Both the position numbers and the translations under genes were made by a program. Shown one piece after another: positions 9,008 through 16,334 of a stretch of DNA of 64,000 nucleotides (position 1 is its first letter; each line of letters opens with the position of its first letter). This DNA is from an uncultured Kofleriaceae bacterium. GTDB taxonomy: Bacteria > Myxococcota_A > Polyangia > Haliangiales > Haliangiaceae. The notes beneath the pieces were generated by a model. That model did not search any database. It was given only the letters and a program-made list of their open reading frames with translations, and was not told the DNA's origin. Location of the stretch: NCBI GenBank assembly GCA_964410875.1, contig CAYPIX010000005.1, positions 4,721-68,720 on the forward strand. Reading direction: 5' to 3'.

Positions 9008-9166
9008 GTTGACATCTTTGAAAGAGGTTCTCGGAAGAATGAGTGCCACTTATCTTAAGAGCCGACACAAAGAAGTAGGAAATTCGACTTTTCCTGCCGT
9101 TTGACGAGTAGGTAGCAGCCATGTCATCTCGACACCGATCCCTATGTTTTCTTATGATTCCTCCTC

Positions 9167-11509
9167 GTGGGGGTAACGGGAAAACGGCAAAAGCGGTTTG
9201 GGAGAGCGGTACGTACCCTGCTCTTTCTCTGCGCTCTTTTTCAGGCTGACGCTCACGCAGAATCCGAAGCCGAAGAAGAACCGCCGCCGACAAGGTTCGT
9301 TATTGATGTTCAGGCTCAAGACCAAAGTGACGCTTGGTTCGCACGGGCGATGTCTGACCGCATAGCTAAAGAAATTTCTGGTTATCAGAGAATCGTAACG
9401 TTTCCGACAAAGTCCTTCGCCTGCTCCCCCTGCTCGCCAACCGATTACCAAGAAGCGGGTATTGAGGTGGTTTTCCTCGGTGTTCTTCGAGACGAAGATA
9501 TCAACTTCGAAATAGTCGAGTTGTGGACTCCTGCAACGGTGTCCAACGGCTCCTTTTCCGTCGACAACGGTATGAGTCAGAGCAGGCTAAAGCGCAACAT
9601 ACTCGGCGCTTTCCAACCGGTATTAACCAAGGGCGGCCTTCTCGACGAGAAAGCGTTTCTTACTGGCACGGCTCTTGGTCCAACAGTGCCCACGTTGGGT
9701 AGCTCACTCCGTAAACACCCCCGTGGTTGGTCCGCAATATTTGGAGCTAGCTTCCTGCTATTCGCTATCGCCGCCCTAGCTATTGTGGCCTCGATTTCAG
9801 ACCGACGCGGGCATAACCTCCGCGCTGTTCGCGGATGGGTTCCCTCGATCTTTATCACGATTACAAGCGCAGCACTCGCCATAGCGTGCCTCGCCTTCAC
9901 CCCCGACCCTCTTGGTCCTGACACTCCGCGCGCCGAATCGTGGGTCTGGCTATCCGAGCTCTTTGGAGGGGTCGCTTGGGCTTGGCTTTTGATTACAGCC
10001 CTTCCTAGTCTGGTTCCCAGCTTGCGGGGATTTAATCGAGTGGGCCATCGAGACGTAGTCCGGCTTGTCCAAGCATGGTTTGCAGTCGTCGCTGAACGCA
10101 TCATCATTCGCGGCATTCTTTACTCTCCGTTCATTGCCATACTTGTCGCAGCCACCTGGTCGATGGATTTGTCCAACCGTCTTGCGCTATTGGTAGTGAC
10201 ACCCTTTTGGTTGCTTTTGGCAAGGTTCTGGTTTCTTGTCATCATCGAAGCCCTTGCTCTCATATTGGATACCGAATGGGTGTCCGGACGAGCGACCCGA
10301 GCGAATGTCTGGCACGATCGTATCACTGAATATATACAGGTATTCGCTAGAAGAACCGGATATTCCCTTCCGCCAGGGTTATTCGACAACGTTCTATTTC
10401 TTCCTGGTCAACGACGAGGTATCCACTCCTACGGCGGCGGACTTGCCAAAACGCGCATTGTAGTCGGAACTGGCTTACTCGAATTCGCGATGCGCGGTCC
10501 CCTTGAGGAAGCCGAGAACGAACATGTCTTTTCTTGGGCCGATTGGCAGGCCGGTCAGATCCAACCGGTTCCTGATGACGACCCCATACAGAGGGCACAG
10601 GGGTTGGGTGCCGACCTTCGAGCCCAAGTAGAACGTTTTGCTGGCCAAGCAAAATCCGCCTTCGACTCTCTATCAGAGAAAAGAAAGCGGCGGCGGGTAG
10701 ATGTTCGAGCTCGCGGGGTGAAACAGGGAATCGGACAAATAGCGACATTGCTGGGACAAGTCATGCCCTCCTCCGATGCTCTTCTACCCTTAGTTGCCGA
10801 TACGCCACGTGATATGGCCGTAATTCGAGAATTGCTAGCTGAGCATTACGATTTCGCCCTACTCGATCCCAATTCGGAATATGACGACGGCGACCCCACA
10901 GATCGAGATTTCCTCTTCGGACCTCTCCTTGTGGAGATTGGCCGTATTGGTCGACGGGAAGACAGACTTCTTACCCTTGGCTCAGCCATTAGCACCATGA
11001 AGTCGGTACCAGGCAAGTGGTATCGGAGCGTGGAGATTTTCTACAAACGTTGGCTGAGTCGCTACTCCGCGATGCTCGCCGATGCGTATGCCGCTCTCAA
11101 CCACGGGCGACACCACTTGGTTCAGTATCTTTATTGTTTTTCTGAGCGAGACCAGTCGCTTCTCAGTGTCCGCGCGCCAAGAGCTGACCTGAAAGCAATA
11201 TCCCGTTATATAACCGATGCAGTAAGCGAGCAGCCTCCGCGAACCGAGGAAATGGGAGCCACCCTTCATGCTCGGTTAATATGGCTGTCTTATTTTTCAC
11301 GAAAACAGCTTCGTGAACAGCGCGCCTACGTCGTTCGCAATATTTTGTACGCTCTCTTCGCAGGTGTGGCTGTGGGTGGATTCCTTGCCGCTACTTTAAG
11401 AGCAATCGACTATCATCCAGCCTACGTTCAAACCCTAGACGAGGAGCGCGCGGCAATCGCCGAAGAAAACGCCTCCATTAAAGAGAAAGAACCCACTGTC
11501 AATGAGTAA
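9167..11509 (+). CDS. Large polytopic membrane protein with a degenerate M48-peptidase-like region
   Basis: 780-aa ORF with a GTG start, a signal-like N-terminus, at least 5 central hydrophobic helices and a C-terminal helix. GIHSYGGGLAKTRIVVGTGLLEF and SAMLADAYAAL resemble M48 blocks, but no HExxH is present. Confidence 0.65.
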   Translation: MGVTGKRQKRFGRAVRTLLFLCALFQADAHAESEAEEEPPPTRFVIDVQAQDQSDAWFARAMSDRIAKEISGYQRIVTFPTKSFACSPCSPTDYQEAGIEVVFLGVLRDEDINFEIVELWTPATVSNGSFSVDNGMSQSRLKRNILGAFQPVLTKGGLLDEKAFLTGTALGPTVPTLGSSLRKHPRGWSAIFGASFLLFAIAALAIVASISDRRGHNLRAVRGWVPSIFITITSAALAIACLAFTPDPLGPDTPRAESWVWLSELFGGVAWAWLLITALPSLVPSLRGFNRVGHRDVVRLVQAWFAVVAERIIIRGILYSPFIAILVAATWSMDLSNRLALLVVTPFWLLLARFWFLVIIEALALILDTEWVSGRATRANVWHDRITEYIQVFARRTGYSLPPGLFDNVLFLPGQRRGIHSYGGGLAKTRIVVGTGLLEFAMRGPLEEAENEHVFSWADWQAGQIQPVPDDDPIQRAQGLGADLRAQVERFAGQAKSAFDSLSEKRKRRRVDVRARGVKQGIGQIATLLGQVMPSSDALLPLVADTPRDMAVIRELLAEHYDFALLDPNSEYDDGDPTDRDFLFGPLLVEIGRIGRREDRLLTLGSAISTMKSVPGKWYRSVEIFYKRWLSRYSAMLADAYAALNHGRHHLVQYLYCFSERDQSLLSVRAPRADLKAISRYITDAVSEQPPRTEEMGATLHARLIWLSYFSRKQLREQRAYVVRNILYALFAGVAVGGFLAATLRAIDYHPAYVQTLDEERAAIAEENASIKEKEPTVNE

Positions 11510-12317
11510 ACCAAACAAGAGCGATTCATCGCTTTTTTTCGCGACTGTGAGCCCTTCGTCCCTCGCCATCGACAAAGCGGCGGCTGGCGCGGGCGTAGCG
11601 GGTCTAGTCGGTTTTGCTGCTCTCTTCGCAGTGGCAACGTTATTCTTCGTCACCGAAAACTACTTTATCGCGATGCTCTTAGTCTCATTTGCGCTGCTCG
11701 TATATGTAACCGGCGCCGGTGTGAAAAAGCTAGCAGGCGCAACAGTGACACTCTTGTTTTCAAGTCGCCATGTAATTGCAAACGCAGCTTACATCCAGGA
11801 GACCCTTGTTCCGCTCAAAGAATTCTTGCGGGTAAAGCACAACGAGCGAGGCGACCTTCTCGTTGGCCCTATCAAACAAGGCTCTGTAGTTGAGCTACCC
11901 GACAACCCGCTCGCTCGAGACGTACAGGCCATCTTAGCGCGGGAAAAAGGTCATGAGTACATTGAGTACACCGCCCACGATTACTATGTCGAATGCCATG
12001 AGCTTTACGACTACTCTTTAGCCCACCTCGAATTTGTCGCTAGTGCCATGCCACTATTTGGACTAATCGGAACCATTGTCGGCCTCATCGGGATGTTCGA
12101 TAGCCTTGGCGCCGACGTTAGCGTTGAGTTTCTAACCCCTCAACTCGCGCTTGCACTCAAGACAACTCTTTACGGTGCCGTTTTTGCATCTTTCTACAAT
12201 ATTGTCGCATCGCGCTTCGACCAAAGACTGAAAGCCCTTGACTACGACTTCGATACATTCTGTCGAGCCCTTGAAGTTCTTGTCGAAAACGACGTGCGGG
12301 CGGAGCTCACGGAGTGA
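11502..12317 (+). CDS. MotA/TolQ/ExbB-family proton channel protein
   Basis: 271-aa ORF with four hydrophobic segments. MPLFGLIGTIVGLIGMF and LALALKTTLYGAVFASFYNI match the TM3/TM4 signature of the family. It overlaps the upstream gene by 8 nt. Confidence 0.85.
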   Translation: MSKPNKSDSSLFFATVSPSSLAIDKAAAGAGVAGLVGFAALFAVATLFFVTENYFIAMLLVSFALLVYVTGAGVKKLAGATVTLLFSSRHVIANAAYIQETLVPLKEFLRVKHNERGDLLVGPIKQGSVVELPDNPLARDVQAILAREKGHEYIEYTAHDYYVECHELYDYSLAHLEFVASAMPLFGLIGTIVGLIGMFDSLGADVSVEFLTPQLALALKTTLYGAVFASFYNIVASRFDQRLKALDYDFDTFCRALEVLVENDVRAELTE

Positions 12318-12913
12318 AACACTTCAGCAAGATGGCGCGAAAACGCCGCAAATCTGATACCTGGCAGGTCATCTACATGGATCTCATGACCATCATCATG
12401 GTCTTTTTCGTAATCCTTTGGTCTTTAAATCAAGGAAAAGATGTAGGCATCAGCGAGACTGTAGGTGACCAAACCCTGCGAATGATCACACTGCCAGGGG
12501 ACGTACTTTTTAACTCCGGCAAGTCACAACTAAGTGCAGATGGCGGACAGGTTTTCCGCAAGTTGTTTGAGGCTGACGCCGATCAAATTCTCGATTTTGA
12601 GACAGGTGGACTAACCAACCGACTTTTGGTTATTCATGGACACACAGACGGCGTAGGAAAGAAAGACGAAAACTTCGGACTTGGTTACCGCCGAGCGTTC
12701 CAGGTCTATAAAGAAATTGAAAAATACGGAGCACAGGTCCCGGACCATGTGGTCCTCTGCAGTCACTCCGACAACTCGCAAGTACAGGCGGTCCCCACTT
12801 TTCAGGGCAACGTCACTCCGGCGCAAAAAGCTCTGGTTCGAGAAGCGAATGCAAAAAACCGCCGCATTACGATAGAAGACAAGATCGTTAACATTGGCGA
12901 AGAGGAGAACTAA
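12314..12913 (+). CDS. MotB-type stator subunit with an OmpA-like peptidoglycan-binding domain
   Basis: 199-aa ORF. YMDLMTIIMVFFVILW is a MotB TM helix with the conserved Asp. The C-terminal motifs are IHGHTDGVG, NFGLGYRRAFQV and NRRITIE. It overlaps the upstream gene by 4 nt. Confidence 0.85.
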   Translation: MKHFSKMARKRRKSDTWQVIYMDLMTIIMVFFVILWSLNQGKDVGISETVGDQTLRMITLPGDVLFNSGKSQLSADGGQVFRKLFEADADQILDFETGGLTNRLLVIHGHTDGVGKKDENFGLGYRRAFQVYKEIEKYGAQVPDHVVLCSHSDNSQVQAVPTFQGNVTPAQKALVREANAKNRRITIEDKIVNIGEEEN

Positions 12914-12916
12914 CAA

Positions 12917-14563
12917 GTGGTAGGAGCTCAATCGCTCTTGACCATCTCGGTCGCGACTCTAGCTCTGCTTACGACTTGGTGGGCCGGTCGCTTTGACCCA
13001 AGCTATCTGATGCGACTCGATCCAACGGTTACTTTCCTAGCCGGCCTTATTTCCACACTTGCTGGCGTGTTCTTTTTTCGGTTCTGGTCCGTAGCTCAAG
13101 GAAGCGACACCTATTTTCGGGTGACGGCAACCGAGGACCAAAAAACAGACGAGGTTCCCCTACTTTCTAGAAACGACAGGCACGTCGTTGTTGGGAATGT
13201 TTCGGACTACCCGCCATGGGAACTTCCTCCCCTGCTCCATCGACTCGCTTATGTAGGGGTCTTCCTCTGTCTTTCGCTATTGTCCTTCGACAACCGAACC
13301 GCGGACCTTTTGCACGCTGCACCAGATCGTCTAGACCCAGCAGTTACCCAGTACTGCGCCGACCCCAATGAGGAAGAACAAATCGTTCAGGATGATCCGG
13401 GATGTAAACTTATCCAACGCGCGTTCGAACTTGGGTACACCAAAGACCTCGGAGATTGCGCACCAAAGGTAAAGAAACAGGGTGCCAACGGCGTTTGTAC
13501 TTTGAGACGAAAAGACGAACCATACCTGCATTACACTTGGCGTTTGCTTCGTGGCAAAGACTTGATCGACGAGGAAGAAAACGAAGAAAACATCGTTTCC
13601 CGCCTGATGAGTCGTTTACGACTTCAGTGGGAATACGTTCCCACCCTCGCCTCTCTTCAATGGACGGCAGTCGCTGCCCGGCCCCGTTCGTCTCACCACA
13701 TTTGGACCAACCTTCCACCACCCGAACGGGGTTTCTTTTTCAAAGTCTCGCGCTTCTTTCATCCGCGTGGCTGTCTCGACGCTTCCTCTCAACCCCAAGA
13801 AACTCTCGGCGATCCGACATGGCGCGCAAACTCCAGTGAGCTTCTCGCCCACGCAATCGCGCAGCTTGTTTACACCCCACAGTACAAACCATCGGTGGGT
13901 TTTTGCCCCGAGTACCACGTGCATTGGGATACAGCGTCCAACTTTTGCACCAAGCTTCTTCGAGCTCCTGAGGACATGTTGTCCTCGTCTGACCTAGAGT
14001 TAATAGAAGGTGTTTTGGCGCGCCAGCAAAATGACACCGGCGTCTCCGAGCTAGGAAAGGCACTTAAAGACGCAAACGCTCTCCAGTCTCGGAGCGACAT
14101 TGCCAGAAGCCGAGAAAGCGAAGCACGTCCGGCATCTTCCAAGCAGAGCATCGTCAGTTTTCAGTGTTTTTTTGTTGTTGAGAACGGCAACAGTGAGGTT
14201 ACTACCCGTGACTTCACTCTGAACGGCACGACGTTCTCTGCACGAGAAGTCCGTATCCCAAGGACTGCGACACCGCCGGAAGTGTACAAAAACGTAGCGA
14301 CCCTACTAGCGCCCGGTTTCCGTTATGGCCAACTTTTAAGCGACGAAGCCGCGGAGGCCGACATGATAGATCAGCGACAACTTACTCAGTCCGACTATCC
14401 CCTTGCCCAACTGGAGGTTCTCCGCGACGCGGATGTCTTCGTTGGCAACGAGTGGCTCCAAGAACAAACGAATCTTCTATCGGTCTACCCCGCCCATCAA
14501 CACTTGGAAAACCTGGTGACACTATTTAGAAGGCAATATGCGGTCCAGCGGGGGCGTTTGTGA
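12917..14563 (+). CDS. Membrane-anchored Cys-containing protein, unknown family
   Basis: 548-aa ORF starting 3 nt after the motB-like stop. Three hydrophobic segments lie in the first ~130 aa, followed by a long soluble region. I recognised no motif. Confidence 0.6.
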   Translation: MVGAQSLLTISVATLALLTTWWAGRFDPSYLMRLDPTVTFLAGLISTLAGVFFFRFWSVAQGSDTYFRVTATEDQKTDEVPLLSRNDRHVVVGNVSDYPPWELPPLLHRLAYVGVFLCLSLLSFDNRTADLLHAAPDRLDPAVTQYCADPNEEEQIVQDDPGCKLIQRAFELGYTKDLGDCAPKVKKQGANGVCTLRRKDEPYLHYTWRLLRGKDLIDEEENEENIVSRLMSRLRLQWEYVPTLASLQWTAVAARPRSSHHIWTNLPPPERGFFFKVSRFFHPRGCLDASSQPQETLGDPTWRANSSELLAHAIAQLVYTPQYKPSVGFCPEYHVHWDTASNFCTKLLRAPEDMLSSSDLELIEGVLARQQNDTGVSELGKALKDANALQSRSDIARSRESEARPASSKQSIVSFQCFFVVENGNSEVTTRDFTLNGTTFSAREVRIPRTATPPEVYKNVATLLAPGFRYGQLLSDEAAEADMIDQRQLTQSDYPLAQLEVLRDADVFVGNEWLQEQTNLLSVYPAHQHLENLVTLFRRQYAVQRGRL

Positions 14564-15153
14564 AACATCTCCTTATGTTCACCGCCGCATTTTTCGTCGT
14601 CTACGTTGGCGCCGCCAATGCGCAAGACAGTACCGATTCGGAGTACACAGTTGAAAAACGCATAGACACCATTTCCAAAGGGTTAGCTGCTGTGAAGCAA
14701 CTCGACCCAAATACCCAGAACAATCTCATAAGCTACATCCACAACATGGCGAAGACCGCATGCCGCGGAAATTCAGCCAGTCTACAAGCGAACTGTCTTA
14801 TCGAAGCGGGACGTCGAAACTGCCGACAAATGAGAAAAACCTTAACCGACGGAGCATGTAACCTGGCAACCGATGTCATTATCGTCAACCGACTCAGCGA
14901 ATCGCAATTTCTATCTTCGCGTGAAAAGTATCGCGTCGCTCGGAAAGCGAAGAAGGCGAGAATCGCAATAGAAAACGCTATCCGTTTGCGTCACGCGACT
15001 CTTGTCACCGAATTCCGTCTTTCGCCGTTTTTCTCGTCCGGGGAGATAGCCGAGAAAATTGATAATTTTTGCCAAGATGGCGCGAAAAACCGTGGCATTT
15101 CGTGGCAACACTGCACGGCAGCACTTGTCTGGTTCATTGGAACATCATCATGA
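14560..15153 (+). CDS. Secreted protein, unknown family
   Basis: 197-aa ORF with signal peptide MKHLLMFTAAFFVVYVGAANAQ. It has 4-nt overlaps with both neighbours. Confidence 0.6.
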   Translation: MKHLLMFTAAFFVVYVGAANAQDSTDSEYTVEKRIDTISKGLAAVKQLDPNTQNNLISYIHNMAKTACRGNSASLQANCLIEAGRRNCRQMRKTLTDGACNLATDVIIVNRLSESQFLSSREKYRVARKAKKARIAIENAIRLRHATLVTEFRLSPFFSSGEIAEKIDNFCQDGAKNRGISWQHCTAALVWFIGTSS

Positions 15154-16334
15154 CTCACGCACTAATCGAACTTCTTTCCCGCGAATCTCGCAAACTCGAG
15201 CAGGCAGGCCTTAGCAAGAAAGAGCGCTTGGTAGAAACTGACTCCTGGCGAGATGGCGGATCTGAAATGGTCCACGTGATCGATTTTACCAGTGACGACT
15301 ACCTTGGGCTTCAGGGACTCAAGGCTATTCATGACTCCGCGTCTGCTGCTCTTGATCTCTATGGGCCCGGCGTTTTCTCAACCAGAATGCAATCGGGCAC
15401 GCGAAGCATTCACAGAGAGTTAGAAAAAGAAGTGGCCACTTTTCTAGGTATGCCAGCGGCATTGGTATACACGAGCCGCTACCAAGCCTGTCTGGGCCTT
15501 TTCGAACCGCTTTTTGACCAACGTGATTATATTTTTTGCGACGCAGTGGTTCACCCCAGCATCGCCGATGGGGCACGCCTCTCCGGCGCGCGCGTGCATT
15601 CGTTTGCAAACCACGACCTGGACGACCTTGAAGATAAACTGAAGCGATCGCGAGGCGCTCGTTTCCGAGCTATCGTGACGGACGGCGTCTCCCCTCTAGA
15701 CGGAGTCGTCGCGAATCTCCCTGGAATTTGCCGATTAGCCGAAACCTATGACGCCTTGACCATCGTCGATGATTCAATGGGGCTAGGCGTCTTGGGAACC
15801 ACCGGGCGCGGTACAGCCGAACACCATGGGGTCACAAATAGAGTGGATATTTTGATCGGGAGCTTTGAAGCGGCACTTGGTGGAAGCACGGGTGGTTTCA
15901 TTTCTGCCCATCACGATATCGTCGACTGGTTACGGCAAAAATCCATCCCCTATATTTTCTCTGGTGCAATGCCGCCGCCAGCAGCTGGTAGCGCGAAGGG
16001 AGTCCTGAAACTCCTCGAACGGGACCAACAGCCCTTGGAAGACCTTCGTAAAAGACAAATGCAACTCCGTTCCGCTCTCGCAAACCTCGGCTATAGAGTT
16101 TACGGCGGCGAACATCCTCTTCTAGCTGTGGATGTAATGGAATCCATCACCCTCCAAAAAATGATCAACCAACTCTTTGATCTGGGAATTTTTGCCTACG
16201 GTCTTTGCTATCCAGTTGTGCCCGAAGGGGAAGCACGGATCCGCTTCCAGGTTTCTGCCAACCACACAGAAGCCCAGCTTGAACAAACCATCACTGCTCT
16301 CGAATCTGTGGGCCGCGATCTATCCGTGATTTAG
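15150..16334 (+). CDS. Alpha-oxoamine synthase fold protein (KBL/AONS/CqsA-like) lacking the PLP lysine; probable pseudoenzyme
   Basis: ATG 15150 forms an ATGA overlap with the upstream stop. Family blocks are FTSDDYLGL, HPSIADGARL, TIVDDSMGLG and DILIGSFEAALGGSTGGF. The canonical DD(S/A)H His is Met, and the G(T/S)xxK Lys is Ala. Confidence 0.8.
   Translation: MTHALIELLSRESRKLEQAGLSKKERLVETDSWRDGGSEMVHVIDFTSDDYLGLQGLKAIHDSASAALDLYGPGVFSTRMQSGTRSIHRELEKEVATFLGMPAALVYTSRYQACLGLFEPLFDQRDYIFCDAVVHPSIADGARLSGARVHSFANHDLDDLEDKLKRSRGARFRAIVTDGVSPLDGVVANLPGICRLAETYDALTIVDDSMGLGVLGTTGRGTAEHHGVTNRVDILIGSFEAALGGSTGGFISAHHDIVDWLRQKSIPYIFSGAMPPPAAGSAKGVLKLLERDQQPLEDLRKRQMQLRSALANLGYRVYGGEHPLLAVDVMESITLQKMINQLFDLGIFAYGLCYPVVPEGEARIRFQVSANHTEAQLEQTITALESVGRDLSVI

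Follow-up and report, generated by a model that had tools for sequence, protein, structure and literature searches.

A lysine-less protein of the 2-amino-3-ketobutyrate CoA ligase type as a candidate subunit of a MotAB-type envelope module in an uncultured Kofleriaceae bacterium

In the membrane-associated serine palmitoyltransferase (SPT) of eukaryotes, the subunit LCB1/SPTLC1 has the fold of an alpha-oxoamine synthase (AOS), lacks the lysine of this fold and is non-catalytic. The 5:2 motors of the bacterial envelope (MotAB, TolQRA-Pal, ExbBD-TonB, AglRQS-Glt and ZorAB-ZorCD) are a separate set of machines, and in our literature searches no protein with a pyridoxal 5'-phosphate (PLP) fold was found in any known 5:2 system. 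Here, we describe a locus in which the two themes meet: in a stretch of 64,000 nucleotides from an uncultured Kofleriaceae bacterium (hereafter the window), the last of six genes (g1 to g6) of an operon encoding MotA-like and MotB-like proteins codes for a relative of 2-amino-3-ketobutyrate CoA ligase (KBL; glycine C-acetyltransferase) that has no Schiff-base lysine. We propose that this protein, g6, is a pseudoenzyme derived from KBL and kept as a cytoplasmic subunit of a MotAB-type envelope module, where its partner would be the membrane protein g1; on the strength of sequence comparisons, we put the probability of this reading at roughly 0.6.

g6, 15150..16334, + strand: KBL-fold protein without the Schiff-base Lys and without the His and Ser that contact O3' of PLP

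The open reading frame (ORF) of g6 (394 amino acids, no internal stops) begins with an ATG that shares an ATGA with the TGA stop of the ORF before it (14560-15153). Its product matches Pfam Aminotran_1_2 (PF00155; E-value 9e-38) and belongs to the alpha-oxoamine synthases by its fold-type-I PLP-enzyme fold and its AOS-type sequence blocks, i.e., VHPSIADG, TIVDDSMGLG and WLRQKSIPYIFS, blocks of a type that the initial annotation had already recognized. The closest solved structures are all KBLs (3tqx, 1.2e-90; E. coli 1fc4, 5.6e-89; 7v58, 5.5e-88), while those of SPT, 8-amino-7-oxononanoate synthase (AONS), 5-aminolevulinate synthase (ALAS) and CqsA are more distant matches; the likeness to KBL, AONS and CqsA-type enzymes that had been noted from the sequence alone narrows to KBL specifically, and the comparison with CqsA does not stand. 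An AlphaFold2 model computed from 120 sequences of the family reaches a pLDDT of 90.1, and its TM-scores to KBL structures in Foldseek are 0.93-0.94. The protein has no hydrophobic segment, hence no transmembrane (TM) helix, and is the only soluble, predicted cytoplasmic product of the module.

Unless stated otherwise, residues are numbered after E. coli KBL, a numbering checked against the PDB alignment, and their roles (including that of Ser185 as second O3' contact) are those that we take them to have in the E. coli KBL structure. Four codons of g6 matter most:

15870..15872, + strand: codon 241 (Ala), at KBL Lys244 in an ungapped alignment to 1fc4, 3tqx, 7v58 and the family
15777..15779, + strand: codon 210 (Met), at KBL His213 in structure and family alignments; Leu in nearly all of the family
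15693..15695, + strand: codon 182 (Pro), at KBL Ser185, VSPLDG in g6 versus VFSMDG in KBL
16206..16208, + strand: codon 353 (Cys), invariant in 65/65 family members; Phe or Ser in canonical KBLs

At the Schiff-base site, GSFEAALGG of g6 falls on GTLGKALGG of KBL without a gap, Ala241 standing in for Lys244 of the G(T/S)xxKAxG motif, and VDDSM falls on VDDSH in the same manner, Met210 standing in for His213 of the D(D/E)(S/A)H motif. Both substitutions had been claimed in the initial annotation, with which the ungapped KBL alignment agrees. Beyond the Lys, the His and the Ser, g6 departs from KBL at Asn50 (Asp), Asn116 (Cys) and Cys112 (Arg), and none of its canonical active-site segments contains a Lys, the nearest conserved one being K264, at the position of an Arg in canonical KBLs. 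Still in place are the stacking His136, Asp210, Thr241 (as Ser), Ser274 and Arg368; in the numbering of g6 itself, the stacking His is His135, the Asp facing the pyridine N1 is Asp207 and the Arg for the substrate carboxylate is Arg365. Moreover, the invariant Cys353 adjoins the YPVVP loop, 12 residues ahead of Arg365. Without the Schiff-base Lys and with neither O3' contact left, g6 is, as far as its residues tell, unable to run alpha-oxoamine synthase chemistry.

The host genome (4.1 Mb in 245 contigs) was searched for genes of the AOS fold, which number five in all, g6 included. One is a separate canonical kbl with every catalytic residue (C89:2626-3816), unlinked to g6 and 39% identical to it at the protein level; a bioF lies on contig C3. 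With the NCBIfam models of the glycine C-acetyltransferase equivalog (NF005394/TIGR01822), g6 obtains 385.6 bits for a cut-off of 460 and 349.3 for a cut-off of 493. Since g6 stays below both cut-offs and the genome has a kbl of its own, g6 is not the KBL of the cell. No second or live member of the g6 family was found in the host genome. The two remaining AOS-fold genes are of a different make-up. One (C98:8627-13270, minus strand) encodes a 1548-amino-acid protein resembling a polyketide synthase, with carrier, ketoreductase-like and dehydratase-like regions, which ends in an intact AOS domain (VDEAHS, GTLSKSLAS). The other (C66:18430-20964, minus strand) is an 845-amino-acid ORF with two AOS-fold halves, the N-terminal one without the His of DxxH (VDESGA) and without the Schiff-base Lys (MNQNLGADSG), the C-terminal one intact (IDDAHG, GTLSKTFG), a fused dead-plus-live pair that recalls LCB1/LCB2.

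To situate these substitutions within the family, two samples were used. The first consists of the 120 best homologues, 48-73% identical to g6, the sources of which are metagenomes and metagenome-assembled genomes (MAGs) bearing the label Myxococcales or Kofleriaceae. In the resulting alignment of 121 sequences, His213 is replaced by Leu in 118, Ser185 by Pro in 118 and Asn51 by Asp in 120, so that the loss of the His is a family-wide trait and not a peculiarity of the window. The initial annotation had asked whether orthologues in the same operon share both substitutions, and the answer is divided: the His loss is indeed common, while most sampled relatives keep the Lys. The second sample was drawn independently of g6, using g4, which is unrelated to KBL, as a marker to avoid circularity; this metagenome search returned 80 loci, 38 of which yield a g6 sequence spanning the Lys position. 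One further g6 copy, on metagenomic contig L101 (1763-2965), runs out of register near DDS(H/L) and the Lys, probably through a frameshift or an assembly error, and was left out of the counts. In this sample, where the alignment around the site is ungapped and unambiguous, the Lys is kept in 22/38 sequences and absent from 16/38, replaced by Tyr (seven times), His and Arg (twice each), and Ala, Thr, Pro, Cys and Gln (once each). No g4-anchored g6 sequence has the complete canonical catalytic set: the few with His213 lack the Lys, and one that keeps the Lys has lost both Asp210 and His213.

In maximum-likelihood trees, the family forms one clade with respect to the genome's own KBL (99% SH-aLRT, with this single canonical KBL as sole outgroup). 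About eight changes of the Lys state are most parsimonious, and at least four losses are forced by well-supported branches. The g6 of the window falls within a supported clade of five sequences, all of them Lys-less, which have Ala, Gly, Thr, Met and Met at the site. Erosion has gone further in the Lys-less lineages: the closest orthologue (P0003) has Leu in place of Arg368 and P0029 has Gln there, Asn116 varies (Cys, Gly or Ala) and the stacking His is gone throughout the clade in which the Lys was replaced by Tyr (hereafter the K-to-Y clade). Losses that recur in this way argue for a Lys-independent role more strongly than one isolated dead copy could.

A comparison of g6 of the window with its Lys-less orthologue in L002, to which it is 73% identical, gives a dN of 0.23 and a saturated dS (>2.7). 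Across the family, 71 positions are at least 88% conserved, and seven residues distinguish its members from canonical KBLs (D50, Y111, P136, S167, G211, C353 and E359). Of these signature residues, D50, Y111, P136, G211, C353 and E359 are all present in g6 of the window. By its position after g5, its place in the monophyletic group and these residues, g6 belongs to a module-specific KBL-like clade that we define here. By these measures of conservation, g6 is a selected protein evolving under purifying selection and not a relic. Some members of the family (among others P0004, P0007 and P0017) bear the public names glycine C-acetyltransferase or 2-amino-3-ketobutyrate coenzyme (CoA) ligase, which are probably wrong, given that the His and the Ser are missing everywhere and the Lys in many; such misnaming would inflate the threonine catabolism predicted for the genomes that carry them.

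The five genes that precede g6 are as follows:

g1, 9167..11509, + strand: 780-amino-acid membrane protein, the probable partner of g6; first gene of the module throughout
g2, 11502..12317, + strand: ion-channel subunit of the MotA/TolQ/ExbB type, 271 amino acids, four TM helices, cytoplasmic loop of about 100 amino acids
g3, 12314..12913, + strand: MotB-type subunit comprising a plug, Asp23 within its TM helix and, for binding peptidoglycan, an OmpA-like domain
g4, 12917..14563, + strand: 548 amino acids, three N-terminal TM helices and a large domain, predicted periplasmic, with eight invariant Cys
g5, 14560..15153, + strand: exported protein of 197 amino acids with six conserved Cys, presumably periplasmic

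Throughout the module family, the order is g1 (a membrane protein of 720-815 amino acids), g2 (MotA_ExbB, 268-275), g3 (MotB_plug/OmpA, 198-207), g4 (535-575), g5 (196-215) and the KBL-like g6, with mostly overlapping junctions. This order is identical in L001, L002, L015, L016 and L017 (the last on a truncated contig), and it was unchanged wherever room allowed in the g4-anchored loci, g6 directly following g5 in 35 of the 37 loci with at least 1250 bp past g5. The view that g6 is the last gene of a MotAB-like operon, joined to it by an ATGA overlap, can therefore be extended, since g6 is a conserved and selected component of that operon. No partner gene is conserved beside the module in the contexts that were read (the five loci just named), and no fusion of g4 to an aminotransferase domain occurs among the long g4 homologues. 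The module is sparsely distributed, with 259 representatives of g4 among 1.84 billion proteins and g4 present in 2/301 sampled genomes of the window's phylum. The MAG G301 (below) falls in that phylum too, as sampling around it and around the genome of the window brought up one and the same genome, that with the 815,516-bp contig of L015. One MAG labelled "Myxococcales bacterium" (G301) holds two diverged whole modules (L022, i.e., C335:4000-20000, and L018, on C331), the g6 proteins of which are 54% and 48% identical to that of the window. Searches of open-access papers and preprints returned nothing on the module, on pseudoenzymes of the KBL type or on MotAB neighbourhoods with aminotransferases. 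The module is thus rare and apparently undescribed, and there is a real chance that its six genes make up a new kind of machine. As for its boundaries, a sigma-70-like promoter match (10/12) at 9129-9158 of the window ends 9 nt ahead of the annotated GTG start of g1 (9167), in which case either the g1 transcript would be nearly leaderless or the true start of g1 would lie further downstream. No terminator-like site was found between g6 and the next gene (16459).

Which component g6 might contact was approached through co-variation. Each gene of 18 complete modules was aligned and the pairwise distance matrices were correlated, partial Mantel tests (2000 permutations) controlling for the other four genes. 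The raw correlations are all high (0.61-0.93), in keeping with shared descent. After the control, g6 and g1 keep a partial r of 0.67, a value reached by 0/2000 permutations, while g6 against g2, g3, g4 or g5, given g1, yields zero or negative values; as internal controls from the same matrix, the known MotA-MotB pair (g2 and g3) reaches 0.52, and g4 with g5 0.55. The association of g6 with g1 holds after rank transformation, without the divergent K-to-Y clade and when only the crown group is considered (0.44-0.56, p <= 0.007). According to its predicted topology, g1 starts with a signal peptide and a periplasmic N-domain (about 40-170), crosses the membrane five times (TM helices at 187-371), continues with a cytoplasmic domain of some 345 amino acids (372-717) and ends, after a sixth TM helix, in a short periplasmic tail; its loop charges fit the positive-inside rule. 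When g1 was split accordingly (p-distances), the signal resided in the predicted cytoplasmic domain (raw r 0.95, partial r 0.75, p <= 0.001), the other parts giving 0.38 (TM region), 0.12 (C-terminus) and -0.61 (periplasmic domain). Furthermore, one variant module (L067, 5896-10099) has g2 to g5 and no g6, and its first gene, of 249 amino acids, shows a weak hhalign match to the periplasmic domain of g1 alone, the TM and cytoplasmic parts being absent. Two small genes for outer-membrane beta-barrel proteins stand after g5 in this variant, in place of g6. From these patterns, we infer that the partner of g6 is the cytoplasmic domain of g1.

Through g2 and g3, the module resembles the 5:2 motors. 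For g2, the Pfam MotA_ExbB match has an E-value of 9e-17, the nearest PDB entries are MotA (8gqy, 1e-8) and TolQ, and the MotA-type Pro184, Thr191 and Gly residues are found in 50/50 modules. The g3 protein matches MotB_plug (6.5e-8) and OmpA (1.6e-6), and its Asp23 is present in 53/54 modules. Together, they possess the channel domain, the TM Asp of the B subunit, the plug and the peptidoglycan-binding domain of such a motor, and the ion path looks functional from these conserved residues. The other three are harder to classify: g1, g4 and g5 gave nothing significant in profile searches of Pfam, NCBIfam and the PDB, and g4 has no match in Pfam, NCBIfam or PADLOC. The N-domain of g1 (window 9285-9680) has a weak fold likeness to TolB-N, PelC and LpoB (Foldseek E-value about 1e-3, in a model of moderate quality, pLDDT 70), and one g1 orthologue matches Pfam TolB_N with an E-value of 0.14. 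This weak resemblance to TolB-N lends the module a Tol-Pal flavour.

Within the cytoplasmic domain of g1 (window 10280-11320), which has no Foldseek match, three blocks resemble, in collinear order, elements of M48 peptidases (a strand, the helix with HExxH and the helix with ExxAD), as follows (family motif of g1, then the genome's own M48 protein on C77):

Block 1: SYGGG..RIVVG.GLLE in the g1 family; NAFSYGAHGGRVVVGFTSALLEGF in the M48 protein
Block 2: DFLFGALV(H/R)ELGxI in the g1 family; DELAFVMGHELGHYL in the M48 protein
Block 3: SRYxAxxADxYAAL in the g1 family; RYAEISADRAGL in the M48 protein

These blocks are parted by a poorly predicted insertion of about 130 amino acids, and the second His and the Glu ligand of M48 are missing from 23/23 g1 orthologues. 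Alignments of g1 with the genome's own M48 proteins (hhalign) are collinear with the motifs, at E-values of 0.07-0.6 that are not significant; no HMMER/Pfam match to M48 was obtained and no M48 structure appears among the Foldseek matches listed. Without HExxH plus Glu and without a significant profile match, the assignment of the domain to the M48 metallopeptidases was not retained and stays a lead.

Taken together, these data allow us to sketch how the module might work. The MotA-like g2, as a pentamer, would turn round a dimer of the MotB-like g3 anchored to peptidoglycan, as family membership and the conserved residues of the ion path suggest. The g1 protein would span the membrane, with its TolB-N-like domain in the periplasm and its domain of about 345 amino acids in the cytoplasm, and g4 and g5 would be Cys-rich periplasmic parts. 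For its part, g6 would retain the dimeric fold-type-I PLP-enzyme fold, owe its preservation to its place as a subunit of this envelope module driven by the proton-motive force, and dock on the cytoplasmic domain of g1, as co-variation and the one variant module lacking both would have it. Once docked, it could act as a scaffold or a regulator. More speculatively, the remnant of its pocket (the stacking His, Asp, Ser/Thr, Arg and the invariant Cys353) could bind a small ligand and report on the metabolic state. The initial annotation had imagined a dead enzyme retained as a structural or ligand-sensing subunit of an envelope machine; the retained module subunit stands, the two roles are indistinguishable here, and co-variation adds a favoured partner. 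Extending this sketch, we tentatively consider an unrecognized class of 5:2-motor machine, the cytoplasmic face of which would be made of two co-evolving dead enzymes, the g6 dimer and the M48-peptidase-like domain of g1, and in which the work of the motor on g4 and g5 would be gated or directed by a metabolite bound in what was once the PLP/acyl-CoA pocket. Were this doubtful extension true, Myxococcota and their relatives would have an envelope process tied to central amino-acid or acyl-CoA status.

Several points weigh against a non-catalytic g6 docked on g1. The Lys is kept in 107/120 of the nearest homologues, in which His136, Asp210, Thr/Ser241, Ser274 and Arg368 are near-perfectly conserved. 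PLP binding and some catalytic activity may therefore have been present in the ancestor of the family and persist in many of its members, and g6 of the window, with most of its pocket residues kept, might itself bind PLP non-covalently. Regarding the partner, the 18 modules are phylogenetically non-independent and were compared through simple distances, the residual correlation of g1 and g6 could be inflated because these two genes evolve faster than any other of the module, and the joint absence of the long g1 and of g6 is seen on a single contig (L067). The abundance of Lys-keeping relatives, the retention of these pocket residues in the window as well as in most relatives, the invariant Cys353 beside the substrate loop and the strong purifying selection would all suit a g6 that is still an enzyme with altered chemistry, working with non-covalent PLP, through an external aldimine or by another nucleophile (e.g., Cys353), and yielding a small molecule (e.g., an amino-ketone or an acylated product) used or exported by the module. 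We nevertheless regard this as unlikely, though it is the most serious of the competing explanations: both O3' contacts are hydrophobic family-wide, the stacking His is also gone in one clade and Arg368 in P0003, and the Lys was replaced repeatedly by unrelated residues (A, G, T, M, N, Y, H, R, P, C, D and Q), a variety that argues against any single substitute chemistry.

The likeness to LCB1 raises another explanation, namely that g6 pairs, as the inactive subunit, with a live AOS paralogue, supplies interface residues to a single active site and tethers this enzyme to the module, in the style of LCB1/SPTLC1 with LCB2/SPTLC2. In its favour, AOS enzymes have their active sites where the two subunits of the dimer meet, the trans-acting Ser274 never varies within the family, the genome encodes a live KBL that is 39% identical to g6, and the fused pair on C66 indicates that dead-plus-live pairing occurs in this organism. 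Yet the genome has no live member of the module family, this KBL is the sole candidate partner and is unlinked, genomes in which g6 keeps the Lys carry the same module, and co-variation points to g1 while no partner gene is conserved beside the module, so that a heterodimer appears improbable. Least probable of all, to the point of being nearly negligible, is that g6 is a decaying relic or that its substitutions are assembly errors. The loss of catalytic residues and the apparently frameshifted copy of L101 would fit, but the ORF is uninterrupted over its whole length, comparison with the 73% identical Lys-less orthologue, which sits in an operon of the same kind, gives a dN/dS well under 1, the Lys is absent from the entire five-member clade to which g6 belongs, the 71 conserved positions are maintained and both position and translational coupling are conserved in 35/37 loci.

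If g6 is indeed a KBL-derived pseudoenzyme serving the module as a subunit, it would be of interest beyond this locus. Bacterial pseudoenzymes recruited as subunits of machines are rarely documented, and in the present family the catalytic Lys was given up many times over, while selection went on preserving the protein, its position in the operon and its sequence. A motor family comprising three proteins without known domains would also gain a concrete candidate for a cytoplasmic partner. Finally, the coexistence of Lys-keeping and Lys-less members in one system would amount to a natural experiment on the fate of the AOS fold after catalysis is gone.

How, then, does the module relate to described systems? 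With KBL (E. coli 1FC4, Coxiella 3TQX), g6 shares its fold, its length, 37-39% identity, a TM-score of 0.93-0.94, the same stacking His136, Asp210, Ser274 and Arg368, and the YPVVP.G.ARIR loop. Unlike KBL, it is devoid of Lys244, His213, Ser185 and Asn50 and scores under the NCBIfam KBL cut-off, and its gene is not linked to tdh, sitting instead in a motor operon of a genome that has its own true kbl. A Zorya-type defence system was considered and rejected: PADLOC gave ZorB-like matches for g3 only, with no ZorA, ZorC, ZorD or effector, g2 has 271 amino acids whereas the ZorA of Zorya is long-tailed, and the neighbouring genes are not consistently defence genes. The nearest precedent for g6 is LCB1/SPTLC1, also a Lys-less AOS-fold subunit, whose PDB relatives 7k0i, 6m4n and 7yjk are matched by g6. 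However, LCB1 has a live paralogue, LCB2, and a TM anchor of its own, whereas g6 has neither a TM helix nor a live paralogue of its family in the genome and lies on the KBL branch, not on that of SPT. With the 5:2 motors, the module has in common the g2/g3 channel, the plug, the TM Asp and the OmpA-like anchor, but the partner families FliG, TolA/TolB/Pal, TonB, Glt and ZorC/D are all absent from it. Like Tol-Pal, the operon of which includes the cytoplasmic thioesterase YbgC, and like Zorya, it would link its motor with proteins of other kinds on either side of the membrane. Pseudoenzyme subunits and motor accessories are thus already known kinds; what appears to be new here is a Lys-less pseudoenzyme of the KBL type as the accessory of a 5:2 motor.

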